Positions 18,757 to 51,592 of a stretch of DNA of 64,000 nt are shown piece after piece; position 1 is the stretch's first letter, and each line of letters starts with the position of its first letter. The notes under the pieces were generated by a model. It ran no database searches and was not told where the DNA came from. It saw only the letters and a program-made list of their open reading frames with translations. The position numbers and the translations under genes were made by a program. The stretch comes from an uncultured Bacteroidales bacterium (GTDB lineage Bacteria; Bacteroidota; Bacteroidia; Bacteroidales; Bacteroidaceae). The DNA lies in the NCBI GenBank assembly GCA_902801325.1, contig CADCHQ010000013.1, forward strand, positions 73,434-137,433. The letters are read 5' to 3'.

Positions 18757-18788
18757 CCTCCTCCCCTCGGGGAGGACGGAAGGGGGCC
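18757..18788 (+). repeat. G/C-rich palindromic REP-like element, copy R1
   Basis: cctcctcccctcggggagg-acgg-aagggggcc. It consists of hairpin CCTCCCC/GGGGAGG plus a G-box, between the lpxC-fabZ stop and the lpxA start. Confidence 0.85.
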
Positions 18789-18792
18789 TTCT

Positions 18793-20181
18793 TTACTTAT
18801 TCTTAATCACTTGCGCCATGAAGGTTGCCTCTGCCACACATTCCTCGCCCACGAAGGCATAGCCTTGCATGGTGGCGATGTTATGGGAGAGGGGAGCCAG
18901 CAACTCGCACTTCATGATTAGGGTATCGCCTGGCACCACTTTCTGACGGAAACGGGCGTTGTCGATTCGGAGGAAGTAGGTGCTGTAGCGCTCGGGCTCG
19001 TCGAGCAGACTCAGGATGTAGAGGCCTCCCGTCTGCGCCATAGCTTCGAGCTGAAGCACGCCAGGCATCACGGGCTCTTGTGGGAAGTGACCTTGGAAGA
19101 AGGGCTCGTTGGCAGTGACGTTCTTGATGGCCACGACACTCTTTTCCTTCAGTTCAATCACCTTGTCCACCAACTGGAACGGATAACGGTGTGGCAACAA
19201 TTCCTTGATGCGGTTGTTGTCCATGACCGGCAGTTTGGAGGGGTTGTAAACAGGGGCTTGCACGTCGAACTTGCGTATCTTCTTACGCATGAGCCGGGCA
19301 AATTTGTTGTTGATGGTGTGTCCGGGTCGCGTTGCGATGATGCGTCCCTTGATGGGTCGGCCTATCAGTGCCATATCGCCAATGATGTCGAGCAACTTGT
19401 GGCGGGCAGGTTCGTTGTCCCAGACGAGGGGTTTGTGCTGGATGTATCCCAGCACGTTGGCGTCGCGGTGTTCCACACCCGTCTTGTCACAAAGCTTGTC
19501 GAGGGCTTCCTGTGTGGTTTGCCTTTCGTAGATGACGATGGCGTTGTCGAGGTCGCCTCCCTTCACCAGTCCTGCCATGAGCAGGGGTTCTATCTCGCGA
19601 ACGAAGACGAAGGTGCGAGCAGCAGCAATCTCTGTCTCGAAGTCCTCCATGCTGTCGAGCGTGGCAAACTGACTGCTGATGAACTTCGACTGGAAGTCGA
19701 TCATCGTCGTAAGGGAGAAATCCTCGTCAGGCAAGAGTGTGATGCAAGAACCCGATTCTTCGTCCTTGATTTCTGTCTTGCTCGTGATGATATAGTAGTT
19801 CTTTGCCGCATCCTGTTCCTTGATGCCCACGCGACGAATCTCTTTCACGTAGGTCTCCGAACTACCGTCGAGGATGGGGAACTCGGGACCATCGACCTGA
19901 ATGAGTACGTTGTCGACACCCAGTGCATAGAGGGCTGCCATACCGTGTTCGATGGTGCTTACCTTGATGTCCTTCTTTCCGAGTACCGTGCCTCGGGTGG
20001 TCTCGATGACATTCTCTGCCACTGCCTCAAGGACGGGTTGCTCGGGCAAGTCGATACGCTGTATCTTATACCCGTGGTTCTCTGGGGCGGGATTGAACGT
20101 CACAGTCAGGTTCAATCCCGTGTGTAAGCCTTTTCCGCTAAGGGAGAAACTCTCGTTCAGCGTGCATTGCTTATTTGTCAT
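18793..20181 (-). CDS. lpxC: Bifunctional UDP-3-O-acyl-GlcNAc deacetylase / 3-hydroxyacyl-ACP dehydratase
   Basis: 462 aa. The N-terminal half is LpxC-like (SGKGLHTGL...). The C-terminal half is FabZ (FFQGHFPQEPVMPGVL). This fusion is typical of Bacteroidota. Confidence 0.95.
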   Translation of the reverse strand: MTNKQCTLNESFSLSGKGLHTGLNLTVTFNPAPENHGYKIQRIDLPEQPVLEAVAENVIETTRGTVLGKKDIKVSTIEHGMAALYALGVDNVLIQVDGPEFPILDGSSETYVKEIRRVGIKEQDAAKNYYIITSKTEIKDEESGSCITLLPDEDFSLTTMIDFQSKFISSQFATLDSMEDFETEIAAARTFVFVREIEPLLMAGLVKGGDLDNAIVIYERQTTQEALDKLCDKTGVEHRDANVLGYIQHKPLVWDNEPARHKLLDIIGDMALIGRPIKGRIIATRPGHTINNKFARLMRKKIRKFDVQAPVYNPSKLPVMDNNRIKELLPHRYPFQLVDKVIELKEKSVVAIKNVTANEPFFQGHFPQEPVMPGVLQLEAMAQTGGLYILSLLDEPERYSTYFLRIDNARFRQKVVPGDTLIMKCELLAPLSHNIATMQGYAFVGEECVAEATFMAQVIKNK

Positions 20182-20236
20182 AATCGTTAGTATTTGTTCT
20201 TGTTATCTTTTATCTTTATGGTCTCTTGCCAGAGGG

Positions 20237-20293
20237 CTTAGGTTCGATGATTTTGCACCTTAGGCTCGATGATTTTGCACCTTAGGTTCGAGG
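20237..20293. repeat. 22-bp tandem repeat (cttaggYtcgatgattttgcac x2.6)
   Basis: It shares the TTTGCACCTTAGG core with the 33560-33734 array. Inverted partner cgaaccttagg lies at 20386-20396. Confidence 0.85.
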
Positions 20294-20330
20294 CGCATCG
20301 AACCTATATATAATTGACCTCGAACCTATG

Positions 20331-20376
20331 TTCTTGCTCCATTGCATTACGCAAGCGTAGCTTCGCGTCCGATTAC
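20331..20376 (+). repeat. Dispersed element, single module (TTCTTGCTCC-attgcat-TACGCAAGCGTAG...CGTCCGATTAC)
   Basis: Flanked by imperfect direct repeats aattgacctcgaacctatg (20312-20330) and aattgacttcgaaccttagg (20377-20396). Confidence 0.85.
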
Positions 20377-20399
20377 AATTGACTTCGAACCTTAGGCCT

Positions 20400-21449
20400 T
20401 CATTGCAGAGCCGCTAATTGCTTCTTCAGTTCTTCTATTTCTTTCTCCATCTGATAGATTTGCTTGCTCAAGTCGGGCAAGTTCTTGAAGACAGCACTCG
20501 ACTTCCAGAAGTTGCGATACTCGAGGGCGGGATAGCCCATGAGGGTAGTTCCTTCCTTCTTCACGCTGTTGGGAATGCCCGACTGCGCCCCCACATTCGT
20601 CTTGCTGGCAATGGTGGCGTGACCTGCTATACCTACCTGTCCGCCAAACATGCACCATTCGCCCACCTTCGTGCTTCCTGCTACGCCGACTTGTGCACTC
20701 ATGACGGTGTGTGCCCCAATGTCGTCGTTGTGGGCAATCTGCACCAGGTTGTCGAGTTTCACGCCCTTGCGGACGTAGGTCGAACCCATCGTGGAACGGT
20801 CGACACAGGTGTTTGCCCCGATTTCCACATTATCTTCGATGGTGACGATACCTATCTGCGGAATCTTCTCGTATCCCTCCTCAGAAGGAGCAAAGCCGAA
20901 TCCGTCGGCACCGATGACGCATCCTGCATGCAGAATGCAGTTGTTGCCCACCTTGCAATCGTGATAAACGACGGCATTGCTGTATATCTCCGTGTTGTCT
21001 CCCACAGTTGCCTTTGCACCGATGGTCACATGGGGATGCAGCACGCAGCCTTTACCTATCACTGCACCCTCGCCAATGGCAACGAAGGGACCTATGTAAC
21101 AGTCCTCGCCAATGGTTGCAGTCGGGTCGATGAAAGCAAGTGAGTCGATGCCCTTCTTCTTGGGTTTCATGCTATCGTAGAGGGTAAGCAGCTTGGCAAC
21201 GGTCTCATAGGCGTTGTCCACCCTGATTAGGGTTGCCTTTGTCTCTCCCTCCAGCTGGAAGTCCTTGTTCACGAGTACGATACTGCTCTTAGTCTCATAG
21301 AGATAGTGTGCATACTTGGGATTGGCAAGGAACGAGATGCAACCGGGGCGGCCTTCCTCAATCTTCGCAAAATCATTAATCTTCACTCCGGGGTCTCCCT
21401 CGATAGTACCTCCCACGAGGCCTGCTATTTGTTGTGCTGAAAATTCCAT
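20400..21449 (-). CDS. lpxD: UDP-3-O-(3-hydroxyacyl)glucosamine N-acyltransferase
   Basis: 349 aa with N-terminus [18 protein letters not shown], a long hexapeptide-repeat beta-helix and a C-terminal coiled tail. Confidence 0.93.
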
Positions 21450-21506
21450 CTTATTTAATTCATAATTTATAATTCATAATCTTTTTGTCCTCAATCTCTC
21501 ATCCTC

Positions 21507-22394
21507 TCATTTTCTCAATTTCTCAATCTCTTTCGCCATTTGCTGTTGCACCTTATGTGCTTCCTCACCTGCTCGCAGGGCAAAGTCCTCGCCGTTGGAG
21601 GCATAGATGATGGCACGACTGGAGTTGACGATGAGGCCGCAATCCTTCGTCATTCCGTAACGGCAAACCTCCTCCAAGCTGCCTCCCTGTGCGCCTATAC
21701 CAGGCACCAACAGGAAGTGGTTGGGAACTATCTTGCGAATGTCCTCGAAGGCGCGTCCTTGCGTTGCACCAACGACGTACATCATTTGGTCTTCATCGGC
21801 CCATTCCTGACTCTTGCGCAATACTCTCTCATACAGTTTTTCAGAGGATGGTTCCTCCCCCTCGGGGGAGTTAGAGAGGGGTCGCGTCTGGAAGTCTTGA
21901 CTTCCTTTATTACTGGTGAGCGCAAGAAGAATCACCCAATGCTGTCTATGCTTCTCCTTCCCCTCGGGGGAGGTTGGGAGAGGGGTCTCCAGGAAGGGCG
22001 TAACGCTGTCCTCACCCATGTATGGGGCCACGGTGACGGCATCCACGTCCAGTGTCTCGAAGAACGTGCGTGCATAGAGTTTCGACGTATTACCTATGTC
22101 GCCGCGCTTGGCATCGGCAATGATGAATTGGTCGGGATAGTTCGAGCGGATGTATTCCACCGTCTTCTCGAAGGCAATCCACCCCTTCACACCCATAGCC
22201 TCGTAGAAGGCCAGATTGGGTTTGTAGGCAATGCAGTAGGGCGCCGTGGCATCGATGATGGCCTTGTTGAACGCAAAGATAGGGTCTTCCTCCGTGAGCA
22301 GGTGCTCGGGAATCTTTTGTATGTCGGTGTCGAGTCCTACGCAGAGGAAACTCTTCTTCCTTCGTATGTTTGCTATTAATTCTTGTCTTGTCAT
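21507..22394 (-). CDS. pyrF: Orotidine-5'-phosphate decarboxylase (type 2) carrying two in-frame repeat-derived inserts
   Basis: 295 aa with motifs FLCVGLDT and [12 protein letters not shown]. The segments [12 protein letters not shown] and [11 protein letters not shown] are encoded by repeat copies R3 and R2. Confidence 0.9.
21854..21883 (+). repeat. REP-like element copy R2, inside the pyrF coding sequence
   Basis: cctccccctcgggggag-ttag-agaggggtc. On the coding strand it reads [11 protein letters not shown] in frame. Confidence 0.85.
21956..21990 (+). repeat. REP-like element copy R3, inside the pyrF coding sequence
   Basis: ccttcccctcgggggagg-ttgg-gagaggggtctcc. On the coding strand it reads [11 protein letters not shown] in frame. 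Confidence 0.85.
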
Positions 22395-22639
22395 TTCTTT
22401 ATCTTTCTTTTAATTCCTAAAACCATAGCTATTACAACGCAGGCAAGCAGGAATATCACCATTTGTACCAGGAAGAACATCAAGGTGCTGTCAGTCTTTC
22501 CCATCCATCTCAGGCAGGGCTGTGTCAGAAGTGCTGCTATGGCAACGGCGATAATAATCGGCCATTCTTCCTTCATTGACTTCTTGAAGCCTTCCCATGT
22601 CCATTCTTCCTTGATATCTTTGAGTAGTCCCATAGTCAA
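22391..22639 (-). CDS. Small two-TM membrane protein, hypothetical
   Basis: 82 aa with two hydrophobic segments and a basic tail KRKIKK. Its stop overlaps the pyrF ATG (ATGA), and its start is 7 nt after the upstream stop. Confidence 0.5.
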
Positions 22640-22646
22640 TTTTGCT

Positions 22647-24341
22647 TTATTTTGTGAATAAGTATCCGTTCGTGTTTATGTTGTATTTGCTGAAGTAAAA
22701 ATAGGTCATGTAATAAGCGCAGTTGCCTTGTTTCGTCTTCAGTTCAATGGGGTAGAGCATTTTCTTGTCGAGTTTTTTCAGGGCATCGAGATTAACCCTC
22801 AGGGTGTCGATGTTGTTCCCTTCGTTGTCGTTGACGGGGATGTCGATGAAGCCACTCTTTTTCTCCAAGGTTACGGAAAGGTCCTTTTCCTCCACCTTGC
22901 TGTATCCCTCGGGTATATCTATTTGCTTGGTCTCGGCAAAGTTGCTGTATGAGAAATACTTTTCTTGCTTTTCCTCTTCTTCTTTGTTGACGTATGTGAG
23001 GAAGGGGATGCCTTCGTTCTCTTGGTTTACGAGGGATTCTATCGACTCCCGGTTGAATGTGCCTTCCAAGTAGGAAAGTTTGGCGCTGATGGCCGAAGCC
23101 TCGTCCTTCGGTAATGCCTTCATCAACTTGTCATATCCGCTTGCGTCCAGAGGACTTGTCACTTGGTGGTCCTTAAGCGTGTGGCGTACTTCGCGCAACA
23201 ATTGACGGCGGGTGAAATTCGTGAAATTGAAGGGCAAGGCCGATGTCAGGAGGAAGAGCGCTGCAAAGGAGATGCTAATCCACTTGATGCGACGTGCACG
23301 AGTCAGGAAGAGGGTGATGCAAACGGCATAGAACCAGAGATTGAGCAGGACAAGATAGAGGCGATGAATCGTGATGCCGTAGTCGCTCAGTCGGCGATAT
23401 ATGCCTATGCTCATCAGCAGTATCAAGGGGATGAGCAGGAGAGGCAGATAGCGTGCCACATTCTCGTCGTACTTGCGTCCTTCGCGTTTACGGACTGGGT
23501 AAAGTCCAAACTCAATGGCGATGCATCCTATCATGGACGCAATCACGAGCCACGACACGTGTCCGTTGGGCAATTCCCAATGGAAGAGAATCTTCAGGGC
23601 ATAGATGTATAGCACCAGCAGATATAATCCCTCGAGAGGTACGAAGATGTATCGCATTACGTTGCCAAGGAAGGCTGTCTGCAAGGGTTCTCTCTTGTGC
23701 TTCTCCTCGCCCTTAGGTATGCGGCCGAGGAACAACAGTGTCGGCAGGTATAAGGCGCAGAGCGTACCCATCACCAAATACCATTTTATATCGAGATCGA
23801 TAGAGAACAGCAGTTTGAGGGAAAACAAAAGAATGCTGACGCCTCCCCATAGCACGAAGCCTATGAGGAAGGTAATGAAGAGGTTGACCAGTATGGAAAG
23901 CGTAAAGTTCCAGGAGGCGATGTCGTCGCGTTCTCTTCCAAAGGAAAGGAAGAAAATGCTCAGAACCAACGCAAAGATTGCCGAAGCATGCATGAGAAAG
24001 ACTTCCCACCCGTTGCCAACGCCGAAATTGATGTTGTACAGATAAATGGTGTCGGCCAACAGGATGGCGTATGACACGATTTGAATGGTGTCGGTTCGCC
24101 GGTTCTCCTCCTGCTCTTCCGTCCAAAGCGCAAGGGTGAGGGAGAGCACAAGGCCAACGGAGAGGAAATAGCTCAGTGCCTTTATCAGTTGTTCATAGGG
24201 CCTAACCTGGTCGGATGCAACGATGATATAGATAAGAAACAGAGCCAGCGCCGTAGCAAATGCCATTGGTGAAGGGAAGCGCTTCGCACAAGTGTGGAAC
24301 GCCGTCGTCACAAATCTCAAGTTCTTTTGTATCCTATTCAT
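22647..24341 (-). CDS. Polytopic inner-membrane protein (DUF4153-like, tentative) with a soluble C-terminal domain
   Basis: 564 aa. About 10 or more hydrophobic helices span the first 400 aa or so, followed by a hydrophilic C-terminal region. Confidence 0.55.
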   Translation of the reverse strand: MNRIQKNLRFVTTAFHTCAKRFPSPMAFATALALFLIYIIVASDQVRPYEQLIKALSYFLSVGLVLSLTLALWTEEQEENRRTDTIQIVSYAILLADTIYLYNINFGVGNGWEVFLMHASAIFALVLSIFFLSFGRERDDIASWNFTLSILVNLFITFLIGFVLWGGVSILLFSLKLLFSIDLDIKWYLVMGTLCALYLPTLLFLGRIPKGEEKHKREPLQTAFLGNVMRYIFVPLEGLYLLVLYIYALKILFHWELPNGHVSWLVIASMIGCIAIEFGLYPVRKREGRKYDENVARYLPLLLIPLILLMSIGIYRRLSDYGITIHRLYLVLLNLWFYAVCITLFLTRARRIKWISISFAALFLLTSALPFNFTNFTRRQLLREVRHTLKDHQVTSPLDASGYDKLMKALPKDEASAISAKLSYLEGTFNRESIESLVNQENEGIPFLTYVNKEEEEKQEKYFSYSNFAETKQIDIPEGYSKVEEKDLSVTLEKKSGFIDIPVNDNEGNNIDTLRVNLDALKKLDKKMLYPIELKTKQGNCAYYMTYFYFSKYNINTNGYLFTK

Positions 24342-24349
24342 TATCTTTT

Positions 24350-24393
24350 AATCGTCCAATCGTGAAATTGTGAAATCGTGAAATTGTCAAATC
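24350..24393. repeat. Tandem 8-nt word array (AATCGTGA/AATTGTGA) filling the prfA-to-next-gene spacer
   Basis: aatcgtccaatcgtgaaattgtgaaatcgtgaaattgtcaaatc. It occupies nearly the whole 52-nt spacer between the prfA stop (24394) and the downstream ATG (24341). Confidence 0.9.
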
Positions 24394-25494
24394 TCAAAGC
24401 GCTGCTTCCTTCATTCTTTCAGCATTCTCCGCCACGATGAGGTGGTCGATGCAGTCCTGTATGTCTCCGTCCATGAAGGCGGCAAGGTTGTAGATGGTGT
24501 ATCCAATGCGGTGGTCGGTGATGCGTCCTTGTGGATAGTTGTAGGTACGTATCTTTGCCGAACGGTCGCCGGTGGAGACCATCGTCTTGCGTCTGCTGGC
24601 GATGTCGTCGATGTACTTCTGATGCTCCTTGTCGTAGATGAAGGTACGCAGGCGAGCCAAAGCCCTTTCCTTGTTCTTCGGCTGGTCGCGAGTCTCGGTG
24701 CACTCCACGAGTATCTCCTCCGTTTCGCCAGTGTTGGGGTTTGTCCACATGTAGCGGGCACGCACACCCGACTCCACCTTGTTCACATTCTGTCCGCCGG
24801 CACCACTGCTTCGGAAGGTGTCCCACTTGATGGCGCCTTCGTTGATTTCCACGTCGAACTCCTCGGCTTCGGGCAATACGGCAACGGTGGCTGCACTGGT
24901 GTGTACTCGGCCTTGTGTCTCCGTAACGGGTACTCGCTGAACGCGATGCACACCTGATTCGTATTTCAGTATACCATATGCTCCTTCGCCAGTCACACTG
25001 AAGACGATTTCCTTGTAACCACCCGATGCACCCTCGCTAAAGCTGGAAACGGAAGTCTTCCAACCCTTCGTCTCGCAATATTTCGAGTACATGCGGAACA
25101 GGTCGCCAGCAAAGAGAGCGGCTTCGTCGCCTCCCGTTCCTCCGCGTATTTCCATGATGACATTCTTGTCGTCTTCAGGATCGGCAGGGATGAGGAGCAG
25201 TTTGATTTCCTCCTCCAACTCGGGCAATCTTTGTTCACTTGCCGCCAGTTCCTCGCGCAGCATTTCCTTCGTCTCGGGGTCATCCTCCAGTGCCAGCATC
25301 TCCTTAGCATCCTGCACATTCTGAAGGTGTCCCATATATTCCTTCCGCGCCTCCATGATACGTCCCAAGTCCTTGTATTCCTTGGTCAGCTTCACGTAGC
25401 GTTTTTGGTCGGCTATCACACTCGGGTCGGTAATCAGCGTCGACACTTCCTCGTATCGTGCTACCAGGCCTTCCAGTTTATTTAATAGATCCAT
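24394..25494 (-). CDS. prfA: Peptide chain release factor 1
   Basis: GGQ motif (SSGAGGQNVNKVES) and RF1 PVT tripeptide (RVPVTETQG). I place the start at MDLLNKLEGL (ATG 25492-25494). The ORF-track extension to 25557 is read through repeat R4. Confidence 0.92.
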   Translation of the reverse strand: MDLLNKLEGLVARYEEVSTLITDPSVIADQKRYVKLTKEYKDLGRIMEARKEYMGHLQNVQDAKEMLALEDDPETKEMLREELAASEQRLPELEEEIKLLLIPADPEDDKNVIMEIRGGTGGDEAALFAGDLFRMYSKYCETKGWKTSVSSFSEGASGGYKEIVFSVTGEGAYGILKYESGVHRVQRVPVTETQGRVHTSAATVAVLPEAEEFDVEINEGAIKWDTFRSSGAGGQNVNKVESGVRARYMWTNPNTGETEEILVECTETRDQPKNKERALARLRTFIYDKEHQKYIDDIASRRKTMVSTGDRSAKIRTYNYPQGRITDHRIGYTIYNLAAFMDGDIQDCIDHLIVAENAERMKEAAL

Positions 25495-25508
25495 AATTCT
25501 ATCTAAAG

Positions 25509-25547
25509 ACCCTCTCCCCAAACCCTCTCCCTTAAGGGCGAGGGAGG
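25509..25547 (-). repeat. REP-like element copy R4 (reverse orientation, TTAAGG-loop variant)
   Basis: gaccctctcccc-aaa-ccctctcccttaagggcgagggagg. Its reverse complement resembles R6. Confidence 0.8.
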
Positions 25548-25597
25548 TAATCTTCAACTTTCAATCTTACTTTTTATATTTAACTTGCCTTCTTTTC

Positions 25598-25623
25598 TCT
25601 CCCCTCGGGGAGTCGGAGGGGGC
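25598..25623 (+). repeat. REP-like element copy R5
   Basis: ctctcccctcggggag-tcgg-agggggc, immediately after the esterase stop codon (25625). Confidence 0.85.
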
Positions 25624-25624
25624 T

Positions 25625-26479
25625 TTACTTAAAATTCCTCGATACGAAGGGCAGACATAGGCGCAGGGCGTTGTGCCAGTATTCCCAAGAATGTCCTCCG
25701 TCACGAACACGTAGCTGGGCATCGAAACGCTTCAGGCGCAGTTTCTTGTACAACTCGATGTTGTTGTCGAAGAGGAAATCATCGTCACCACAATCGATGA
25801 AGAACTTTATCTGGCGCAGGGTGCTTAGTTCCGCCTCACTGGCGTTGTCCAGCTTGTCGAACGGATTACGTTTTGCCACAGCATTGGTCACCTGTGCCAC
25901 TTTGTCATCGAGTGGAGCATCAGCACGTGCTTGGGCATTTAGCCAGGCACTCATGGGGTAGCAGGCGCAGAACATGTCGGGATGTCCCAGGGCATAGCCT
26001 ACGCTGCCGCCTCCGCCCATCGACAGGCCTGCCACGGCGCGTTGTCCGCGACTGCCTCCGGCTCGGTATTTCTGCTCCACGGCAGGCAGGAGTTCCTGGA
26101 AGAAGTGGTCTTCGTAGGCCCAGCCGGGCATGTTGAAGTATCCGTTCCAGACGTTCTTCGTGTCGGGGCCTCCGGCACAGGGCATGACGATGACCATCTT
26201 CTGTGCCTCGCCGGTGGCCATCAGTTCGTCGGCCACGCGGTCCATTTGTCCCTTGTCCTGCCACGAGCGTTCGTCGTCGGTGAATCCGTGCAATAGGTAG
26301 AGGACGGGGTAGTGACGGTCTGTCTCTCTCTGGAAACCAGCGGGCAGATACACCATGAAGTAGCGCTGAACGCCCAGTACTTCACTCTTAATGGAGTCGC
26401 GGATGACAGCGGCGTCTGCCTGCAGGGCAAACATCAGGCTGATTAGTAAGCAAAATGCTTTTTGGATGGTCTTTTTCAT
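25625..26479 (-). CDS. Secreted alpha/beta-hydrolase, esterase D / CE1-like putative esterase
   Basis: 284 aa with a signal peptide. Motifs YPVLYLLHG and nucleophile elbow GLSMGGGGS. Confidence 0.8.
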   Translation of the reverse strand: MKKTIQKAFCLLISLMFALQADAAVIRDSIKSEVLGVQRYFMVYLPAGFQRETDRHYPVLYLLHGFTDDERSWQDKGQMDRVADELMATGEAQKMVIVMPCAGGPDTKNVWNGYFNMPGWAYEDHFFQELLPAVEQKYRAGGSRGQRAVAGLSMGGGGSVGYALGHPDMFCACYPMSAWLNAQARADAPLDDKVAQVTNAVAKRNPFDKLDNASEAELSTLRQIKFFIDCGDDDFLFDNNIELYKKLRLKRFDAQLRVRDGGHSWEYWHNALRLCLPFVSRNFK

Positions 26480-26528
26480 ATTATATCAATTCAAAATTCA
26501 AAAATAATCATTCTCAACTGTTTTTATG

Positions 26529-26563
26529 CCTCGCCCTTTAAGGGAGAGGAAGGGAGAGGGTCC
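26529..26563 (+). repeat. REP-like element copy R6
   Basis: cctcgccctttaagggagagg-aa-gggagagggtcc, between the purM stop and the esterase start. Confidence 0.85.
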
Positions 26564-26565
26564 TC

Positions 26566-27732
26566 TTAGTACTCAAACGTCCCAAATTCACTCTTGATAG
26601 TCAGACTCTTTCGTCCTTCTTCGATGCGGCCGATGACTTGTGCATCGATGTTGAAGGAACGACTTATCTCGATGACGCGATCTGCATCCTCGGGAGAGAG
26701 GTAAACCTCCAGTCGATGGCCCATGTTGAACACCTTGTAGGCTTCGCTGTAGTCGGTCCCGCTTTCCTTTATGATGGCTTTGAAGAGGGGAGGAACGGGG
26801 AACATGTTGTCCTTTATGACGCGACAGTTCTCACCCACGAAGTGCAACACCTTTGTCTGTGCTCCACCTGTGCAGTGTACCATTCCGTGTATCTTCGGAC
26901 GCAGCTCGTCGAGCAGTTTCTTCACTACCGGAGCATAGGTGCGAGTGGGGGAGAGGACGAGTTTGCCAGCGTTGATGGGCGAACCCTCAACTGGGTCTGT
27001 CAGTTTGTACGAACCACTGTACACGAGTTCCTCAGGCACGGCCTTGTCATAGCTCTCGGGATATTTCTCGGCCAAGTATTTGCTGAAGACGTCGTGTCGG
27101 GCGCTGGTAAGTCCGTTCGAACCCATTCCGCCGTTGTACTCCTTCTCGTAGGTGGCCTGTCCAAAGCTTGCGAGGCCCACGATGACGTCGCCCGGACGGA
27201 TGTTCTTGTTGTCAATCACGTCACTACGCTTCATGCGGCAGGTAACCGTAGAGTCCACGATGATGGTACGAACGAGATCGCCCACGTCGGCCGTCTCTCC
27301 GCCAGTGGCATAGATGCCGATACCCATGTCGCGCATCTGCTGCAGCAGTTCGTCGGTACCGTTAATGATGGCAGAAATCACCTCGCCCGGGATGAGCATC
27401 TTGTTGCGGCCTATGGTGCTGCTGACCAAGATGTTGTCCGTAGCACCCACGCACAGCAGGTCGTCGGTATTCATGATCAGGGCATCCTGTGCGATACCTT
27501 TCCACACCGAGAGGTCGCCCGTCTCTTTCCAGTACATATAAGCCAGGCTCGACTTCGTTCCAGCCCCGTCGGCATGCATGATGTTGCACCATTCGGGGTC
27601 GCCGCCCAGTATGTCGGGAATAATCTTGCAGAAAGCCTGCGGGAAGAGGCCTTTGTCGATGTTCTTGATGGCGTTGTGCACGTCCTCCTTAGCTGCCGAC
27701 ACGCCCCTCAGCATGTAACGTTGATTTTCCAT
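26566..27732 (-). CDS. purM: Phosphoribosylformylglycinamidine cyclo-ligase (AIR synthetase)
   Basis: Motif MHADGAGTKSSLAY with the PurM fold throughout. I place the start at MENQRYMLRGVSA (ATG 27730-27732). The 35-codon upstream extension in the ORF track looks non-coding. Confidence 0.92.
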   Translation of the reverse strand: MENQRYMLRGVSAAKEDVHNAIKNIDKGLFPQAFCKIIPDILGGDPEWCNIMHADGAGTKSSLAYMYWKETGDLSVWKGIAQDALIMNTDDLLCVGATDNILVSSTIGRNKMLIPGEVISAIINGTDELLQQMRDMGIGIYATGGETADVGDLVRTIIVDSTVTCRMKRSDVIDNKNIRPGDVIVGLASFGQATYEKEYNGGMGSNGLTSARHDVFSKYLAEKYPESYDKAVPEELVYSGSYKLTDPVEGSPINAGKLVLSPTRTYAPVVKKLLDELRPKIHGMVHCTGGAQTKVLHFVGENCRVIKDNMFPVPPLFKAIIKESGTDYSEAYKVFNMGHRLEVYLSPEDADRVIEISRSFNIDAQVIGRIEEGRKSLTIKSEFGTFEY

Positions 27733-27895
27733 TCTTCGTATGCTCTTTTTTACTAGTCGGGCGTAAAGATACGAAGAATTATCGAGTTGGCAAAATCTTG
27801 CGCGCGCGATTTGCCCCTTTTGTGTGAAAAGGGACATCTTTTGTTACGTACGGGTGTGTAACAATTGAGGAAATACAGTAGTATTAAACCCTACA

Positions 27896-30257: not shown

Positions 30258-30754
30258 CAAGAACACGAATAGCAACATTAAATAACCATTTAACTTCCTA
30301 TAAAGCAATGAATTACAACTTTTTTGGAAACACCGCTCAAGCGATGCCCCGACCTGAAAAAGGCACAAAATGCATCAAATTGCTCCTCTCACAGGCCTCA
30401 AAAGACATGCGTTAACCCCTTGTTCCGATGTTTTTCCCAACTTTTGTGATATATTTAGTGCTTCGGAAAAATAGCACATTTAACTCATTTGGGAGGTGTT
30501 TTGTGACCAAATGACTATCCACGTTGCAGAAAATGGGGGTAACAAGTGCCATTTGGCACCCATAATGCGACAAATTTTGATTCTATTGGAGACCATAATG
30601 CAAGAGCAGTAGCGCGGCTCTTGGTTTAGCTATTGTCCATTGCCGCGAAAGTACAGGCGTTGTGCCTTGGTTGTAATTCCTTGAGGTCTTGCTTGGGCAA
30701 GTCTGCAACCCAATAAGTGTAATATGGTGACTCGGGGAAGGGGCGAATCGGGCA

Positions 30755-32650: not shown

Positions 32651-32656
32651 TGGGAT

Positions 32657-33559: not shown

Positions 33560-33734
33560 CTTCCGATTTTGCACCTTAGGTCTTCCGCGTTTGCGCCTTA
33601 GGTCTTCCGCGTTTGCACCTTAGGTCTTCCGCATTTGCGCCTTAGGTCTTCCGCGTTTGCACCTCAGGTCTTCCGCGTTTGCGCCTTAGGTCTTCCGCGT
33701 TTGCACCTCAGGTGCTCGGCGTTTGTGCCTTAGG
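33560..33734. repeat. Tandem array of eight 22-bp units (tcttccgcgtttgcRccttagg) with 44-bp higher-order alternation
   Basis: Unit boundaries are at 33560, 33581, 33603, 33625, 33647, 33669, 33691 and 33713. Units alternate between gcGcc and gcAcc variants and abut directly without spacers. Confidence 0.92.
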
Positions 33735-33778
33735 CCTTCGTCGCTAGGGCAAGCGTGCTCTGCCAATCCTATAATTGA

Positions 33779-34743: not shown

Positions 34744-34797
34744 ATTTGACGATTTGACGATTTGACGATTTCACAACTTTCAACTCTCAACTGTCAC
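34744..34797. repeat. Tandem 8-nt word array (ATTTGACG)3 followed by degenerate words
   Basis: atttgacgatttgacgatttgacgatttcacaactttcaactctcaactgtcac. It lies upstream of the purC ATG and overlaps the phoH stop. The same word recurs at 45311-45353. Confidence 0.85.
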
Positions 34798-35761: not shown

Positions 35762-35790
35762 ATGGCAAATGGCAAATGGCAAATGGCAAA
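35762..35790. repeat. Tandem 7-nt array (ATGGCAA)4 in a divergent intergenic region
   Basis: atggcaaatggcaaatggcaaatggcaaat, between phoH (minus strand) and the M15-like gene (plus strand). Confidence 0.9.
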
Positions 35791-35813
35791 TATTTCTTAT
35801 ATTTGTGGTCGAA

Positions 35814-42428: not shown

Positions 42429-42434
42429 ATTGTG

Positions 42435-42471
42435 AAATTAAAAATTAAAAGTTAAAAATTAAAAATTAATT
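42435..42471. repeat. AT-rich word array directly upstream of the ACT gene start
   Basis: aaattaaaaattaaaagttaaaaattaaaaattaatt, 36/37 identical to 18720-18756. Confidence 0.9.
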
Positions 42472-42472
42472 G

Positions 42473-42523
42473 TTCTTGCTCCGGCAAGCTACGCAAGCGT
42501 CACAGCTTCGCAGATGCCGAGCG
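42473..42523 (+). repeat. Dispersed element, single module (TTCTTGCTCC-ggcaagc-TACGCAAGCGT...GATGCCGAGCG)
   Basis: The first 29 nt are identical to the reverse complement of the 53327-53373 copy. It is flanked by aaaaattaatt and aaaaattagg. Confidence 0.85.
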
Positions 42524-42535
42524 AAAAATTAGGAA

Positions 42536-43843: not shown

Positions 43844-43853
43844 TATTTTATTT

Positions 43854-43916
43854 AATTATGAATTAGAAATTACGAATTATGAATTACGAATTAGAAATTA
43901 CGAATTACGAATTATG
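43854..43916. repeat. Tandem 7-8-nt word array (AATTACG/AATTATG/AATTAGA)
   Basis: aattatgaattagaaattacgaattatgaattacgaattagaaattacgaattacgaattatg, upstream of the paaK paralog 1 start. A degenerate reverse copy of the dispersed element follows at about 43918-43960. Confidence 0.88.
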
Positions 43917-43965
43917 TAACCGGACGGCTGCAGGCCTACGCTTGGCTCGTCCAAGAATTACGTTT

Positions 43966-45273: not shown

Positions 45274-45278
45274 GGGAT

Positions 45279-45353
45279 AATTTACGATTTACGGATTTAC
45301 GATTTACGATTTATTTGACGATTTTACAATTTTACGATTTGACGATTTATTTG
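45279..45353. repeat. Tandem 7-8-nt word array (ATTTACG / ATTTGACG)
   Basis: aatttacgatttacggatttacgatttacgatttatttgacgattttacaattttacgatttgacgatttatttg. It fills the spacer between the symporter stop and the paaK paralog 2 start. Confidence 0.88.
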
Positions 45354-46867: not shown

Positions 46868-46915
46868 GATGATATTACGTTATATCGTTATTACGTTGTT
46901 TCGAATTTTCTCTGC

Positions 46916-48019
46916 TTAATTGAAGCGAACCTGCAGTTGGCACATGAGGGAGTGACTGTTGTCGCGGACAAAGACGCCCTTTGCCACATAAGCACTCTTA
47001 TAGACATATTGCAACTGCACACGGCACTTCCCGTAAAACCAGTATTGTATGCCCGCTATGGCCTTGTGCTGGTCCATGCTCAGTTTGGTGTTGAAGTTGA
47101 AGAAGTCGTACGACCCCACGAACTCCACTTCAGGTCTGCCCAGGGGAACTGACCCCGTCAGATAGCCACCGCGACTGGTCACGTCGCCGTCGTAGCCTTC
47201 CAGGTATTCGCCGTGCAGATTGAATTTACGCGATTTATAGCTAAAGCCCAGCGTCCAGCGATTGCGCTTGTAGTCGTCGCCCTTGCTGATGGTTGGGTTA
47301 TATACCGAACCGCCTGTTCCCGCAATGGAGTCTGCCACCGAGTGTCCACGGCCTATCTGGCCAGAAGCCACCAAGTTCAGTCCCTTCACGGGGCGGTATT
47401 CTATTCGTCCGATGATGTCTTTGAAATTGTTCCCGTCCTTCTTGTTGATGCCTTGTCCGTCCATCACTTGCAGTTCGTATCGCAACTTGGTGTCGTTGGT
47501 TTCGCCGTAAAGGGCCAGACCCAAGTCACGTCCGTATTGCACGCCCAGCAGCGGGTCGCTACCGCAACCGGTGAGGAACGTCACGCCTTCCGAATAGACG
47601 TCGATGGCTTCCATGGAAGTGGGGGAGAGGGGATTCTCGAGTGAGAGACCATTCTTAAACTGACCAATGCGAGCCACGAGGGCATTGTTCTTGGTAATGC
47701 GAAAGTCTGTGTAAAATTCCTGTACGACACTCGAGAAGTCGTGCATGAAGAGAAACGACCAGCGGTCGGTGATTTGTGCGTTTGCCCAGAAGAGCACGCG
47801 CTTTAGTTCGAAAGAGTTTGTGTGGGTGTTGCTGCGGTTGGTGTAAGCGTAACCGCCTTGTGCGTATCCATGCAACTGGATGTGCTCAGTGAGTTTGTCT
47901 AATACCTTTTTACCTTTGCTTGTTGCAGTAGAGTCTGATTGACCCATTGCCGCCGTGCTGCTGAAGATGGCCAGAGCCACAGCCAGCGTTGCCTTGGCGA
48001 AAAATGTTTTTTGTTTCAT
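46916..48019 (-). CDS. Outer-membrane porin (phosphate-selective porin O/P-like beta-barrel)
   Basis: 367 aa with a signal peptide, alternating beta-strand pattern, aromatic girdle residues and a C-terminal F. Confidence 0.7.
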   Translation of the reverse strand: MKQKTFFAKATLAVALAIFSSTAAMGQSDSTATSKGKKVLDKLTEHIQLHGYAQGGYAYTNRSNTHTNSFELKRVLFWANAQITDRWSFLFMHDFSSVVQEFYTDFRITKNNALVARIGQFKNGLSLENPLSPTSMEAIDVYSEGVTFLTGCGSDPLLGVQYGRDLGLALYGETNDTKLRYELQVMDGQGINKKDGNNFKDIIGRIEYRPVKGLNLVASGQIGRGHSVADSIAGTGGSVYNPTISKGDDYKRNRWTLGFSYKSRKFNLHGEYLEGYDGDVTSRGGYLTGSVPLGRPEVEFVGSYDFFNFNTKLSMDQHKAIAGIQYWFYGKCRVQLQYVYKSAYVAKGVFVRDNSHSLMCQLQVRFN

Positions 48020-48037
48020 TGTTTGATGGATTAGGGA

Positions 48038-49354
48038 TTATTGATTGTTCTGTTCGAATATGCCCATGCGTTCTTCCAACTGGGCATACTGATGGTCCTC
48101 GATGAAGGAGGTGCACACGCGCAGCCCTTCCTGATGCGAACCCGTGGTGATGAGGCAAATGGCGCTCACACCGTAGTACATCAGTTCGCGTGCCAACTCG
48201 CCGCTGGTCATTCCCGGATAGCCAATGGTGAAGTAGAATCCGTCGGCAACGGGCTTGTCCAAGTCCTTGTCATAAACGATGTGGAAACCATGACGCAGGA
48301 AGATTTCCTTCAGCTTATGGGCTCTTTCGCCATACACCTTCACCTCGTCGCGGAAGCGATATTCCCCGTCACAAGCCGCACGGAACATCGCCGCCAGCGC
48401 ATATTGTGCCGAATGACTTGTTCCCGACGACAGGGCGTAAAGCATGCGGGTGGAGAATACCAGTCCGAAGGGCAGACCCTCGTAGCGTGCACTCAGGTCG
48501 TCGTAGTGGCGGTGGAACAGCTTGTCGTTGATGCACACCACGCCAATGCGCTCGCCGGCGTAGCTGAAGGCCTTCGAACCGCTGATGAGCAACATGTAGT
48601 TGTCCGTATATCGGGCCACGGTCGGTTGATAAGGCGGTTGGAAGGGGACGCTCAAGTCCTCGCGGAAGTCCATAGCGAAGTATGCCAGATCCTCCATGAT
48701 GATGGTGTCGTACTGCGTGGCCAGTTCGCCTATGTCCTTCAACTCCTGTTCCGTCAGGCATATCCACGATGGATTGTTGGGATTGCTGTAAACGATGGCA
48801 CAGATGTTACCCTTCGAGAGGTAACTTTCCAACTTCGGACGCAGTTTCTCGCCACGATAGTCATAAACGTCGAAGGTCTCGTATTTCACGCCCAACACCT
48901 GTAACTGCATCTTCTGGACGGGGAATCCGGGGTCGATGAACAGCACCGTGTCCTTCTGTTTCGAAGCCTGCGAACAAGTCAGGAACGAGGCAAACGTACC
49001 TTGCATACTACCGCACACGGGCACGCAAGCCTCTGCCGCAATGTCCACACCGATGAACGCCTTCACGAATCGCGAAGCCTGCTTCTTCAGTTCGGGGTAG
49101 CCTTGAATGTCGGGGTAGGAGTGTGCTATGCCGTCCTGCAGAGCCTTAATCTGGGCGTCCACACCCACCTTTGCGGCAGGCAGACCAGGGATGCCCATCT
49201 CCATTTTTATGAATTCCACGCCGCTCTCTTTCTCTGCCATCGCAGCCACCTGCTTCACCTCGCGTATGGTCGCCTTCGCAAAGTCCTGAATGCCCAGCTG
49301 GGCTATCAGACCATCCACCACATCCTTCCCAATGGGAGTATCTTTTACCTTCAT
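48038..49354 (-). CDS. PLP-dependent aminotransferase, class I/II fold
   Basis: PLP-lysine context LLISGSKAFSYAG. The start is set at MKVKDTPIGKD (ATG 49352-49354). The 70 upstream codons in the ORF track are low-complexity leader sequence. Confidence 0.85.
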   Translation of the reverse strand: MKVKDTPIGKDVVDGLIAQLGIQDFAKATIREVKQVAAMAEKESGVEFIKMEMGIPGLPAAKVGVDAQIKALQDGIAHSYPDIQGYPELKKQASRFVKAFIGVDIAAEACVPVCGSMQGTFASFLTCSQASKQKDTVLFIDPGFPVQKMQLQVLGVKYETFDVYDYRGEKLRPKLESYLSKGNICAIVYSNPNNPSWICLTEQELKDIGELATQYDTIIMEDLAYFAMDFREDLSVPFQPPYQPTVARYTDNYMLLISGSKAFSYAGERIGVVCINDKLFHRHYDDLSARYEGLPFGLVFSTRMLYALSSGTSHSAQYALAAMFRAACDGEYRFRDEVKVYGERAHKLKEIFLRHGFHIVYDKDLDKPVADGFYFTIGYPGMTSGELARELMYYGVSAICLITTGSHQEGLRVCTSFIEDHQYAQLEERMGIFEQNNQ

Positions 49355-49643
49355 ACCTATCAAATTAATACAAATCGGTTGCAAATATACAAAATCTTTT
49401 ACGAATAAGCGAAGGAAAATAGAAGAATTGTAAAAACTCGTTCGTGCGAAGGGCTTTTCAGTTTTTTCTTTGATGATTAATAGGTTAAACAATAATTTAG
49501 TTTTGTGGGAGGAGAGAAGGGGTAAGGGGCAAGAGAATACGTTTGCCGACGGTGTATCTCTCAACAGGTCTTTGCAATTTGAACGCTTGTTCAGTGCCCT
49601 TCGAACAATTGTTTAATTATCATCGAGCCTGCTTTCGTTGAAC

Positions 49644-49739
49644 TTCTTGCTCCTCTTTGTTACGCAAGCGTAGACCCTTTGGGTCGTCCGATTACTTGCT
49701 CCTCTTCGTTACGCAAGCGTCTCCTATCGTCGCCGAGCG
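49644..49739 (+). repeat. Dispersed element, two-module copy
   Basis: ttcttgctcc-tctttgt-tacgcaagcgtag...cgtccgattac plus ttgctcc-tcttcgt-tacgcaagcgt...cgtcgccgagcg. The terminal gccgagcgcg can pair with cgcgactcggc about 12 nt downstream. Confidence 0.88.
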
Positions 49740-49865
49740 CGGTCTTCCTATGTCGCGACTCGGCATTGATGTACACATCATGACGCTCACAGTTCTATCG
49801 GTTCGGAAAATTGCAAATGTATTTGTATTTTCACTCGGTTTGCACTATCTTTGGCTTTGCCGAAA

Positions 49866-50042
49866 ATACTTACGCTCGTTGTGAAATACTTCAAAAGAAA
49901 AACATTGCGATATCGCAATTGTGCCTTCGGCGAGGAAGTTTTACATTCGCCCTGTAAACAAGTTTACGTGCGATTTCTCACTTTTCTTTCGTTTTTCTTT
50001 CCTTTTTTTGTTTTTTTCGTTCGCTTATTCGTATTTTTGTCC
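49866..50042 (+). promoter_or_regulatory. Promoter-bearing repeat module A (paralog of 54584-54769)
   Basis: -33 TTTG (50007-50010) and -7 TATTTTTG (50032-50039) with a 21-nt gap. Upstream palindromes are ttgcgatatcgcaa (49905-49918) and gtaaacaagtttac (49954-49967). Blocks of 32/36 and 19/21 identity match the reverse complement of module B. Confidence 0.6.
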
Positions 50043-50127
50043 TTCGATTTTAGATACCAACTATATCACGTTGAATGTGTTAGCAGATTTAAGCAGGGTG
50101 TAAAAGATAGCAAGTTTGTAGATTACG

Positions 50128-50730
50128 ATGAGAAAGATTATCATTACTTTATGGGCTGTGATGATTATGTTGCCGGCCTTCTCTCAAGAGAAGGACCTGA
50201 CAAAGGACGTCACAATGGTTTCTTATGAGCAAAGGAAGGGGGATGGCGAAGGAAAGCTTGCACTTAGGAACAACACTGAGGCGGTGATAATGGATGTCGT
50301 TTTCCAACTTACCTATTTTGATAAGTCGGGTACTCCCCTCGATAGCGCAGACTTTAAGGAATGGGTGTATGCTGATCCTGGAAAGACTGCGGTGCTTGAC
50401 ATTCCGGCTTATCAGATAGAACGTGATGATTACAAGTCTGGGAATAACTCCAGCGATTCTCTTGACTTCAAAGTTGAATTTGAACTGAAGGATTATAATA
50501 CCGATTCGTTTGCCGTTAAAGGGTCTGACAAGGCTTCGCTTGTTTCATTCTTGGTGACTATATTTATAATAGTTTCTGTACTTGCGATATGGATAGTCTT
50601 GTATTACCTTGTTGCCGTGATGGCCATAAAACGAAACCGTAGTGTGATAAAATGGCTTTTGTTGAGTATCCTCATCACGCCTCTTCTCGCCGCTTTAATT
50701 CTTCTTGTAGTGGGGGAAAAGGGGGTGTAA
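50128..50730 (+). CDS. Hypothetical membrane protein (signal peptide, about 130-aa extracytoplasmic domain, two C-terminal TM helices)
   Basis: 200 aa with lower G+C than its neighbours. I recognise no family. Confidence 0.5.
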   Translation: MRKIIITLWAVMIMLPAFSQEKDLTKDVTMVSYEQRKGDGEGKLALRNNTEAVIMDVVFQLTYFDKSGTPLDSADFKEWVYADPGKTAVLDIPAYQIERDDYKSGNNSSDSLDFKVEFELKDYNTDSFAVKGSDKASLVSFLVTIFIIVSVLAIWIVLYYLVAVMAIKRNRSVIKWLLLSILITPLLAALILLVVGEKGV

Positions 50731-50806
50731 AAGTTTAAAGTTTAACGGTTAACGGGTTAAAAGTTTAAAAGGTTAAAAGTTTAAGGGTTAAAGGGTTAAA
50801 GGGTTA
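50729..50806. repeat. Tandem word array (AAAGTTTAA / AAGGGTTAA)
   Basis: aaaagtttaaagtttaacggttaacgggttaaaagtttaaaaggttaaaagtttaagggttaaagggttaaagggttag. It shares its leading words with 53209-53245. Confidence 0.88.
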
Positions 50807-50818
50807 GACTACGATTTA

Positions 50819-50855
50819 CGCTCGGCATCTGCTGAAGATACCGAGCGTTTTTTTT
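50819..50855 (+). terminator. Rho-independent terminator (also placed to stop iorB from the other side)
   Basis: cgctcggcatct-gctga-agataccgagcg followed by T8. The arm CGCTCGGCAT is the same motif that ends the dispersed element. Confidence 0.8.
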
Positions 50856-50880
50856 CTTTAATAAAAATGATTTCTTAAAT

Positions 50881-51513
50881 TCAGGCTTGTTCCCGTCCGA
50901 TGGAGAGGGCCTTGATGTTAGCCTCGACGATGGCGTCACCCTTGCGAGAGAAGACGCGACGAACGGCCTGTTCCATCTTCTCGTAGGCAATGCCGAGGGC
51001 CTTCTGGGCAGCACCTAGGAGGATGACGTTGGCCGAACGGGGCACACCGTTGTCCTTGGCCAGTTGCTCGATGTCGATGGCAATGACGTGCTTCACACTT
51101 GCCAGTTCGGCCTTGATGCCCTCCAGATCGGGATAGTTGGGAATGTTCACAAACGGTGCGCTGGACGTGATGATCCATCCGTCCTTATGGAGGTAGGGGA
51201 GGTAGCGCAGGGCTTCCATCGGTTCCATGGAGATGATGACGTCGGCACCACCCAGGGCTATCAGGTCGCTGGCAATGGGGTCGCTGCTGATGCGGAGATT
51301 CGACTGCACGTCGCCGCCTCGCTGACTCATGCCGTGAACTTCGGCCTGCTTGATGTATAAGTTCTCGTTCATGGCGGCCTCACCAATGATGGTTGCTATC
51401 GAGAGGATGCCTTGTCCTCCTACGCCGCAGAGGATTATGTCACACTTCAGACTCACCCCCGACCCCTCTCTTGTAGCGAGGGGAGTGGTTACTGTTGAAT
51501 TGTTAGTATTCAT
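50881..51513 (-). CDS. iorB: Indolepyruvate:ferredoxin oxidoreductase, beta subunit
   Basis: DIILCGVGGQGILS with an IorB-like sequence. The first 19 or so codons of the ATG-initiated ORF are repeat R7. A GTG at 51454-51456 is an alternative start. Confidence 0.88.
   Translation of the reverse strand: MNTNNSTVTTPLATREGSGVSLKCDIILCGVGGQGILSIATIIGEAAMNENLYIKQAEVHGMSQRGGDVQSNLRISSDPIASDLIALGGADVIISMEPMEALRYLPYLHKDGWIITSSAPFVNIPNYPDLEGIKAELASVKHVIAIDIEQLAKDNGVPRSANVILLGAAQKALGIAYEKMEQAVRRVFSRKGDAIVEANIKALSIGREQA
51454..51487 (-). repeat. REP-like element copy R7 (reverse orientation)
   Basis: caccccc-gacccctctcttgtagcgaggggagtgg. The reverse complement gives hairpin CTCCCCTCGC..AGAGAGGGG plus a G-box. 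Confidence 0.75.
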
Positions 51514-51555
51514 TATTTATATGTTTTTTTTGTTGCTATTCTTGAAAAGAAACTG

Positions 51556-51592
51556 CCCCCCTCCTTAACAGGGAGGGGTTTGGGGGAGAGTC
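51556..51592 (+). repeat. REP-like element copy R8, overlapping the 3' end of iorA
   Basis: cccccctccttaacagggagggg-tttgg-gggagagtc. It encodes the last residues TLPQTPPC and carries the TAA stop (51565-51567) in its loop. Confidence 0.8.

Follow-up and report, generated by a model that had tools for sequence, protein, structure and literature searches.

What are the eight short G/C-rich palindromes that lie at or in the genes of a 64,000-nucleotide stretch of DNA from an uncultured rumen Bacteroidales bacterium, and how did they come to be there? The stretch, which we will call the window, comes from a member of the Bacteroidaceae (assembly GCA_902801325.1, contig CADCHQ010000013.1, positions 73,434 to 137,433). 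An earlier reading of its letters, hereafter the original prediction, compared the eight copies (R1 to R8) with repetitive extragenic palindromic (REP) elements and Rickettsia palindromic elements (RPEs), and proposed that they were either intercistronic RNA hairpins or selfish mobile palindromes. Judged by their block order and stems, we assign them to the BoxC / PIT / triplex-motif family of E. coli, which had been missed, and we find that ends of the same kind bracket genes for DUF559 proteins in many lineages. On balance, we lean towards the view that the eight copies are selfish insertions acting at the DNA level, likely the non-autonomous remnants of a DUF559-carrying unit.

The window has a G+C content of 50%, and its minus strand carries a run of co-directional genes, namely lpxA, lpxC-fabZ, lpxD, pyrF, a DUF4153 gene, prfA, an esterase gene and purM, with iorB and iorA further on. 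On inspection of the sequence, all eight predicted copies were present at the coordinates given for them (limits of the elements in Table 1), and the plan attributed to them was borne out, with a C-rich arm, a loop, a G-rich arm, 0-5 nt and a G-run box; the strand of each element is taken as the one that reads C-stem, G-stem and G-box from 5' to 3'. Because MAFFT fails on the variable loops and a sequence model of C/G runs is unspecific, we used a structural pattern (pyrimidine arm of 6-8 nt, loop of 2-10 nt, complementary arm, at most 7 nt, G-rich 9-mer; both strands) together with shuffled controls. The scan of the 64 kb returned R1 to R8 and no ninth match on either strand. In 60 dinucleotide-preserving shuffles it found 0.28 matches on average and never more than 2; the excess is somewhat inflated, since the pattern was drawn up after the copies had been seen. 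With up to 2 mismatches allowed, the motif GGGAGAGGGGTC was found 10 times (4.5 expected) and the motif CCCCTCGGGGAGG 6 times (1.0 expected). Two degenerate fragments that had been proposed as further copies did not hold, as both fail the structural scan: the one at 13606-13618 is a G-box alone, and the one at 30730-30754, with a C-box and a C-arm beside a stop codon but without a G-arm, can at most be what is left of a truncated copy. Nor are all of the eight independent, as R5/R4 and R8/R7 form two inverted doublets (D1 and D2), with their boxes outward on both sides of an AT-rich spacer.

When copies are aligned across genomes, a single plan emerges: the tag (A)AG[C/A]C is followed by 7-10 nt of pyrimidine box and then, after a linker of 1-3 nt, by a hairpin whose C-arm and G-arm enclose a loop of 2-9 nt. 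The other strand reads C-stem, G-stem and mirror-image G-stem; single units measure 30-45 nt and doublets 60-180 nt. The published pattern of the TMECO motif is CCCTCNCCC N3-6 GGGNGAGGG N3 GGGNGAGGG, that is, a C-stem of about 9 nt, a loop of 3-6 nt, a G-stem, a loop of about 3 nt and a second G-stem (PMC4666352). R4 fits it without any substitution once a second loop of 4 nt is allowed (CCCTCGCCC TTAA GGGAGAGGG TTTG GGGAGAGGG), R6 fits it with 4 substitutions, and the other six copies keep the block order with variant stems (CTCCCC/GGGGAG, CCCCTCC/GGAGGGG). R6 and R4 also share a G.A stem mismatch with E. coli BoxC, whose copy upstream of fabI has the same stems and the same mismatch; E. coli genomes carry this same stretch at 19 places in the median. 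We take this fabI-adjacent copy to be the site where BoxC was first described, and the first description, near envM, is said to go back to Bergler in 1992 and to Bachellier. The third block mirrors the adjacent stem in 195 and repeats it directly in 50 of 361 asymmetric elements (Wilcoxon p ~1e-16), a test that rests on elements from across genomes, the eight of the window being too small a sample by themselves. A mirrored third block is the geometry that a triplex would require, and the formation of an intrastrand triplex in vitro is reported for the E. coli sequence alone (PMC4666352).

The window elements are therefore like the described family (Hoyne and Maher 2000; Holder et al. 2015, PMC4666352) in block order and near-identical sequence, in the G.A mismatch and the mirror-repeat third block, and in their dispersal at gene junctions with a presence that varies between strains. 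They differ from it in several respects. TMECO has been described from proteobacterial genomes only (PMC4666352), whereas the host here is a rumen Bacteroidales; the E. coli copies are reported to be always intergenic (Holder et al. 2015, PMC4666352), whereas four copies of the window (R2, R3, R8 and R7) are read in frame in proteins; and inverted doublets are common, with ends that bracket DUF559 genes. What goes beyond the description of the family is the gain and loss at orthologous junctions, the in-frame copies and the link to DUF559.

Two of the in-frame copies lie in pyrF, where R3 encodes residues ~136-146 of the protein and R2 residues ~171-181, that is, 11 residues each. PyrF of the window has 295 aa against 273-275 aa in most Bacteroidales, and both insertions fall exactly at R3 and R2, which add a net 36 and 24 nt relative to empty alleles. 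A third insertion site was found among the 120 closest homologues (75-100% identity), in which the occupancies none, 1, 2, 1+2, 1+3, 2+3 and 1+2+3 are all seen; in a codon alignment with three syntenic relatives, the net insert at sites 1 to 3 is +36, +24 and +24 nt. Site 1 holds different sequence variants in different lineages, part-deleted copies occur (e.g., ETPLPTS--KQH in the homologues P0036 and P0042), and one pyrF copy (locus L023) is identical to intergenic copies of another locus (L034). In an AlphaFold model of PyrF (predicted local distance difference test score, pLDDT, 72; predicted template modelling score, pTM, 0.77), both insertions appear as low-confidence coil between secondary-structure elements, and the R2 peptide, with a pLDDT <50, falls in the coil that separates helices 163-170 and 187-198.

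The same variation is seen between genes in relatives whose pyrF is 83-91% identical to that of the window. The purM/esterase junction measures 86 nt with R6 in the window and, with no element, 19 nt in L090 and 36 nt in L091; the esterase/prfA junction measures 130 nt with R5 and R4, and 56 and 68 nt, again with no element, in the same two relatives; and the lpxC-fabZ/lpxA junction is filled in the window (R1) and in L090, and empty in L089 and L091. Elements have been gained and lost at orthologous sites, in-frame sites included, and the proposal of a selfish palindrome is supported by the fact that the occupancy of these sites varies from one relative to another. No polymorphism was seen among strains, the eight loci with the same pyrF (L001-L008) being identical to the window. 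An apparent purM indel in one of them (L003) was a scaffold gap of Ns and was rejected.

The position of the copies could also be explained by selection in the host, the elements then being mRNA hairpins (for stability, translation coupling or attenuation) or DNA sites for nucleoid or replication factors. Read in gene sense, six copies run tag, C-box, C-arm, loop and G-arm, R4 and R7 being oriented opposite to the other six. R1, R5 and R6 start 0-6 nt past the TAA of lpxC-fabZ, esterase and purM, respectively: on the mRNA (minus strand), R1 reads TAA-AGAAGG-CCCCCTTCC-GT-CCTCCCC-GA-GGGGAGG from the lpxC-fabZ stop codon (18793-18795), R5 reads TAA-AGCCCCCTCCGACTCCCCGAGGGGAGAG from that of the esterase gene (25625-25627), and R6 directly follows that of purM (26566-26568). 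Across genomes, at least 10 copies begin 1-12 nt past a stop codon in sense orientation, the ends of the doublets, between which operon junctions lie, might form long-range pairs, and REPs of E. coli have such roles. However, the orthologous junctions of close relatives work without any element, and copies are read in frame in pyrF, MetH, iorA and iorB. On the mRNA strand, the U-run that an intrinsic terminator would need is absent downstream of R1, R5, R6 and R8, and the RNA hairpin energies of the eight copies are no better than those of dinucleotide shuffles (z from +0.08 to -2.1); we rejected hairpin stability as a signal, since shuffles of the same C/G-rich composition match it. The window gave no Rfam match at gathering thresholds, and earlier work on the PIT elements of E. 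coli, as cited in PMC4666352, is reported to have found no promoter or terminator activity. The metatranscriptomes yielded matches only to conserved parts of prfA and the esterase gene, on contigs that belong to other species, and none of these matches covers an element. We consider a host-selected function quite improbable, and the processing hairpins or attenuating terminators of the original prediction are not upheld, given the lack of a U-tract, the shuffle-like energies and the tolerance of copies in coding sequence.

The two doublets show how closely the elements can be bound up with the ends of genes. In D1, R4 lies ~10 nt upstream of the prfA ATG at 25494. The longest prfA open reading frame (ORF; 24394-25557, minus strand) has a TTG start and reads through R4 (LKITSLALKGEGLGRGSLDRI-M...), and one gene caller in public data took this long form (387 aa vs 366 aa); this TTG-started ORF, inside which R4 lies, is spurious, and translation most likely begins at the ATG at 25494. 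In D2, R8 codes for the C-terminal tail of IorA (TLPQTPPC*) and holds the stop codon (51565-51567) in its loop, and R7 is read in frame in an N-terminal extension of IorB (TTPLATREGSGV), so that the claim that all copies outside pyrF sit exactly in intergenic spacers fails for these two. The D2 spacer contains the ATG (51511-51513, minus strand) of the extended iorB. The canonical start Met of iorB is a Leu in the window (SLKCD), and the start must therefore be either the element-linked ATG at 51513 or a GTG inside R7. About half of the IorB homologues among the matches listed begin at MKTDIILCGVGGQG, without extension, and the remaining ones have an element-encoded extension of 20-24 aa.

Short imperfect palindromes that often form inverted doublets after stop codons recall the REP / BIME / REPIN elements, which resemble those of the window in size, in having occasional in-frame copies and in that repeats flank a single-copy protein gene. 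On that reading, a REP-associated tyrosine transposase (RAYT, an HUH Y1 transposase) from another part of the genome would mobilise the window elements in trans; there are known cases of REPs within ORFs (PMC3733652), and Bacteroidetes have RAYTs of subclasses 2.4 and 2.6, the flanking structures of which are called 'atypical' (PMC6006769). Yet neither GT[AG]G nor CGTC, the REP tags, is conserved in 31 aligned copies, in which the conserved tag is AG[C/A]C, and a third mirror block is present. A regular expression for the HUH...Y motif, run over 2.35 Mb (the window and the loci described below), returned no convincing RAYT, the one long ORF that it matched (in L114) being unverified; the REPtron table of PMC6006769 contains no REP similar to the window element; and the gene found inside or beside the elements encodes a PD-(D/E)XK nuclease (DUF559), not a Y1 transposase. 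We regard mobilisation by a RAYT as highly improbable, and membership in the REPs is not supported; the search for a RAYT that the original prediction suggested gave no convincing candidate in these 2.35 Mb. In the openly accessible literature searched, we found no description of REP-like elements in Prevotella or Bacteroidales.

The likeness to RPEs stands in part. These too are palindromic selfish DNA, read in frame in housekeeping genes at surface loops and variably present between relatives, as are the copies in pyrF; membership fails, since RPEs are 100-150 bp long, confined to Rickettsia and without a known associated gene, whereas the units here measure 30-45 nt. The two are presumably unrelated in sequence.

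The link to DUF559 came from loci outside the window. A metagenome scan with the family pattern gave 120 loci from many habitats, with G+C contents of 0.29-0.73, and doublets of the window's design in 38 of them. In the 2.35 Mb made up of these element-selected loci and the window there are three DUF559 ORFs, all bracketed by elements. In L172 the gene lies inside a doublet. In L127 a compact element lies upstream of it and an element encodes its C-terminal tail. In L104 a whole DUF559 domain, flanked by element-encoded peptides, is in frame within the activation domain of a MetH ORF of 1420 aa (3421-7683, minus strand). This MetH has three more element-encoded peptide insertions elsewhere in the protein. 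The homologues of the L172 protein among the matches listed are named as Bacteroidaceae or Prevotella proteins and lie mostly on contigs of 0.5-2 kb. In eight DUF559 proteins whose contigs we examined, the gene lies between korA-like and korB-like genes (7/8) or between an acetyltransferase gene and argG (1/8). At all eight, the left end encodes the tail and the stop codon of the upstream protein, and the right end, read in frame, extends the downstream protein at its N terminus. The extension starts at an ATG in the inner flank of the unit (MNTNINSNSNYSSPSGEARWGAS-DYKKGQPRWCPGC).

The window itself may bear traces of this arrangement. Its iorB extension (MNTNNSTVTTPLATREGSGVS), which begins MNTNN..., resembles the korB extension MNTNIN..., although the host operons differ, and the D2 spacer reaches alignment scores of 52-58 with the 3' end of DUF559 and the adjoining right inner flank, against shuffle maxima of 35-43. 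As would be expected of miniature inverted-repeat transposable elements, the ends are shared with DUF559-carrying units (L172, L212-L227, L232, L233 and L104). Beyond the Bacteroidales, elements adjoin DUF559, by eye, in six plasmid or chromid loci of six genera and four phyla (Sinorhizobium, Azospirillum, Neisseria, Sphingomonas, Deinococcus and Picosynechococcus), and a score for flanking inverted repeats that makes no use of the pattern exceeds that of all 130 control genes in 11 of 16 DUF559 loci. The same ends bracket DUF559 genes in many lineages. As for the protein, it matches PDB 3hrl with an E value of 7e-19 and, weakly, the intron-encoded protein PDB 3r3p (E 0.011), and Pfam places DUF559 (PF04480) with the Vsr family. 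The Neisseria protein (L231, Neisseria gonorrhoeae) is a close match to PDB 3hrl. Less than 10 kb from its gene lie two long tandem arrays (800-3080 and 10490-11200) with a period of ~280 nt and a TMECO-like motif in each repeat, one of which begins ~150 nt downstream of DUF559.

In E. coli, the DUF559 gene is ycjD, which ends inside an element-like hairpin followed by a BoxC, which we take to be the original BoxC. The gene is present in 3378 of 5426 complete E. coli genomes, and ycjD and the adjoining BoxC are jointly absent from ~38% of complete E. coli genomes. In K-12 (L228, NC_000913.3 1351100-1351460), the last ~40 nt of ycjD (GAGACGGTGCTGGAGAATATTC..CTGAACCG) are repeated ~100 nt past the stop codon, and the element-like hairpin seems to have split or duplicated the 3' end of the gene.

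We propose the following course of events. The full unit would consist of a left end, a gene for DUF559 as a Vsr-like PD-(D/E)XK endonuclease, and a right end; the putative nuclease would drive the spread of the elements by starting the copying of the unit into new sites, and solo ends and internally deleted copies would be its non-autonomous remnants. The doublets of the window look like such internally deleted DUF559 units. Units would insert at or in genes, and copies would persist only where they do little harm, that is, directly past stop codons, just before start codons or in surface loops in frame. Translation initiation in Bacteroidetes is thought to rely on unstructured leaders, and hairpins near start codons would for that reason be selected against. 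The left end can provide a short C-terminal tail and a stop codon, and the right inner flank an outward ATG, from which the reading frame continues across the right end and on into the next gene; operon expression would thereby be kept. In the window, the effects would be a PyrF longer by two loops, a new tail for IorA, a new start for IorB and three padded operon junctions.

Several points weigh against this proposal. A regular-expression search finds no DUF559 ORF within the 64-kb window, which has solo ends and doublets only, and an element is found on one side only in 4 of the 16 DUF559 loci. All but one of the Prevotella-type DUF559 loci examined lie at the same kor junction, which looks like one old, vertically inherited insertion and not like current mobility, and as the elements favour gene ends anyway, some bracketing of a small gene could be coincidental. 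No clear or consistent target-site duplication or fixed target sequence was found at the doublets, a comparison limited by the fast divergence of the flanks at orthologous sites. No transposition or homing event was observed, and a nuclease alone does not account for insertion at non-homologous sites. In a spread sample of E. coli, chromosomes with the ycjD locus have 16-31 BoxC-like places and those without it 2-23, a suggestive contrast in which phylogroup is a confounder. Beside the E. coli copies, no mobility genes are reported by Holder et al. (PMC4666352), and in the titles and abstracts of the openly accessible papers that mention DUF559 we found no link to palindromic repeats.

In the main alternative, structure-prone DNA spreads and rearranges without a dedicated enzyme, by replication stalling, template switching or break repair at triplexes or hairpins, DUF559 being a passenger or a repair nickase retained beside such sequences. 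Holder et al. link triplex motifs to local genomic instability (PMC4666352), the mirror-repeat geometry fits triplex formation, and there are both the part-deleted copies mentioned above and collapsed 'double-foot' forms (L042, L091 and L127). On the other hand, the terminal tag and the block order are kept across phyla, there are doublets with long near-identical arms (e.g., L034 7378-7482), and the whole unit of left end, DUF559 and right end recurs at the kor junction, at the arg junction and within MetH, sites that have nothing in common, which argues that a defined unit has moved. We hold enzyme-free spread to be rather unlikely, and keep to remnants of a DUF559-carrying unit as our preferred reading.

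This preferred reading has parallels. Free-standing homing endonuclease genes ('intronless homing', as in T4 seg/mob) and the Vsr-like EDxHD homing endonucleases (I-Bth0305I, PDB 3r3p) are, like DUF559, small nuclease genes that lie between conserved operon genes or split them. DUF559 shares the Vsr-like fold family. Unlike the DUF559 units, those genes have no G/C-rich triplex-type terminal repeats and no dispersed miniature derivatives. The mobile GC clusters of yeast mitochondria are short G/C-rich palindromes in AT-rich DNA, sometimes beside free-standing endonuclease-like ORFs that are in-frame fusions to the genes upstream; being organellar, unrelated in sequence and without the triplex block order, they offer an analogy only.

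A wider claim, which we make tentatively and hold to be somewhat short of even, is that the BoxC / PIT / triplex-motif repeats have, in bacteria at large, their missing partner in DUF559. The autonomous unit would then measure ~0.5 kb and consist of tag, box and hairpin, a DUF559 nickase gene, and hairpin, box and tag, and its own outward stop and start signals would let it sit between or within essential genes without polar effects. The Vsr-like nuclease might recognise the extruded hairpin or triplex, perhaps at the G.A mismatch, and start copying, and the solo ends and doublets found from E. coli to Prevotella and cyanobacteria would be decay products.

Table 1. Elements, host genes and other repeats of the window, with positions counted from its first nucleotide.
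Feature	Position	Strand	Basis
R1, solo element	18755-18792	+	Structural scan; orthologous spacer compared in L089-L091
R2, solo element in frame within pyrF (site 2)	21854-21887	+	pyrF homologue alignment, model
R3, solo element in frame within pyrF (site 1)	21956-21990	+	pyrF homologue alignment, model
R4, downstream end of doublet D1	25505-25547	-	Scan, TMECO pattern comparison
D1 spacer, AT-rich, 50 nt, esterase/prfA junction	25548-25597	no strand	Doublet geometry
R5, upstream end of doublet D1	25598-25624	+	Scan, junction comparison
R6, solo element after purM stop	26529-26565	+	Scan, TMECO pattern comparison
R7, downstream end of doublet D2, in iorB extension	51452-51487	-	Reading frame, homologue starts
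D2 spacer, AT-rich, 68 nt	51488-51555	no strand	Alignment with DUF559 units
R8, upstream end of doublet D2, iorA tail	51556-51596	+	Reading frame, doublet geometry
pyrF (OMP decarboxylase), host of R2 and R3	21507-22394	-	ORF, homologues
iorB (POR gamma-type subunit)	50881-51513	-	ORF, homologues
CTTGCTCC-N7-TACGCAAGCGT copies	17244-17269, 17291-17316, 20333-20358, 42475-42500, 49646-49671, 49695-49720	+	
CTTGCTCC-N7-TACGCAAGCGT copy	53346-53371	-	
AT-rich tandem-repeat spacers	17188-17243, 18720-18754, 24350-24393, 34744-34771, 35762-35791		
AT-rich tandem-repeat spacers	42435-42469, 43854-43914, 45280-45349, 50723-50806, 53208-53245		

The window contains other repeats. A second, unrelated intergenic family, CTTGCTCC-N7-TACGCAAGCGT, is matched exactly at 7 places (none in shuffles) and contains a small hairpin (TACGC-AA-GCGTA); it recalls in style the REPs listed for RAYT subclass 2.6 of Bacteroidetes, and is a better REP candidate than the BoxC-type element. 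AT-rich tandem repeats of 7-8 nt (ATGAGGTT, AAATTAA, AATCGTGA, ATTTGACG, AATTACG and others) fill many short co-directional spacers just before the next start codon, and their units differ at the same junctions in relatives. A 22-nt tandem array, CTTCCGCGTTTGCACCTTAGGT, is present in 8.2 copies at 33560-33739, within a 259-nt intergenic region, and a related 22-mer in 2.5 copies at 20237-20291, upstream of lpxC-fabZ. The tRNA scan found no tRNAs in the window.

These elements matter for annotation, as they create false ORF starts, such as that of the TTG-started prfA, and lengthen PyrF, IorA, IorB, KorA, KorB, ArgG and MetH. They probably break metagenome assemblies as well, and most of the listed DUF559 homologues are on the short contigs noted above. 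For protein biology, the three variously filled sites of pyrF offer a clean natural series on the tolerance of loop insertions. Knowledge of the BoxC / PIT / TM repeats of E. coli goes back to the 1990s, and such repeats occur in hundreds of genomes, without a known origin, function or mobilising enzyme, and DUF559 is a large family without an assigned function; their physical link makes of these two questions a single testable hypothesis.

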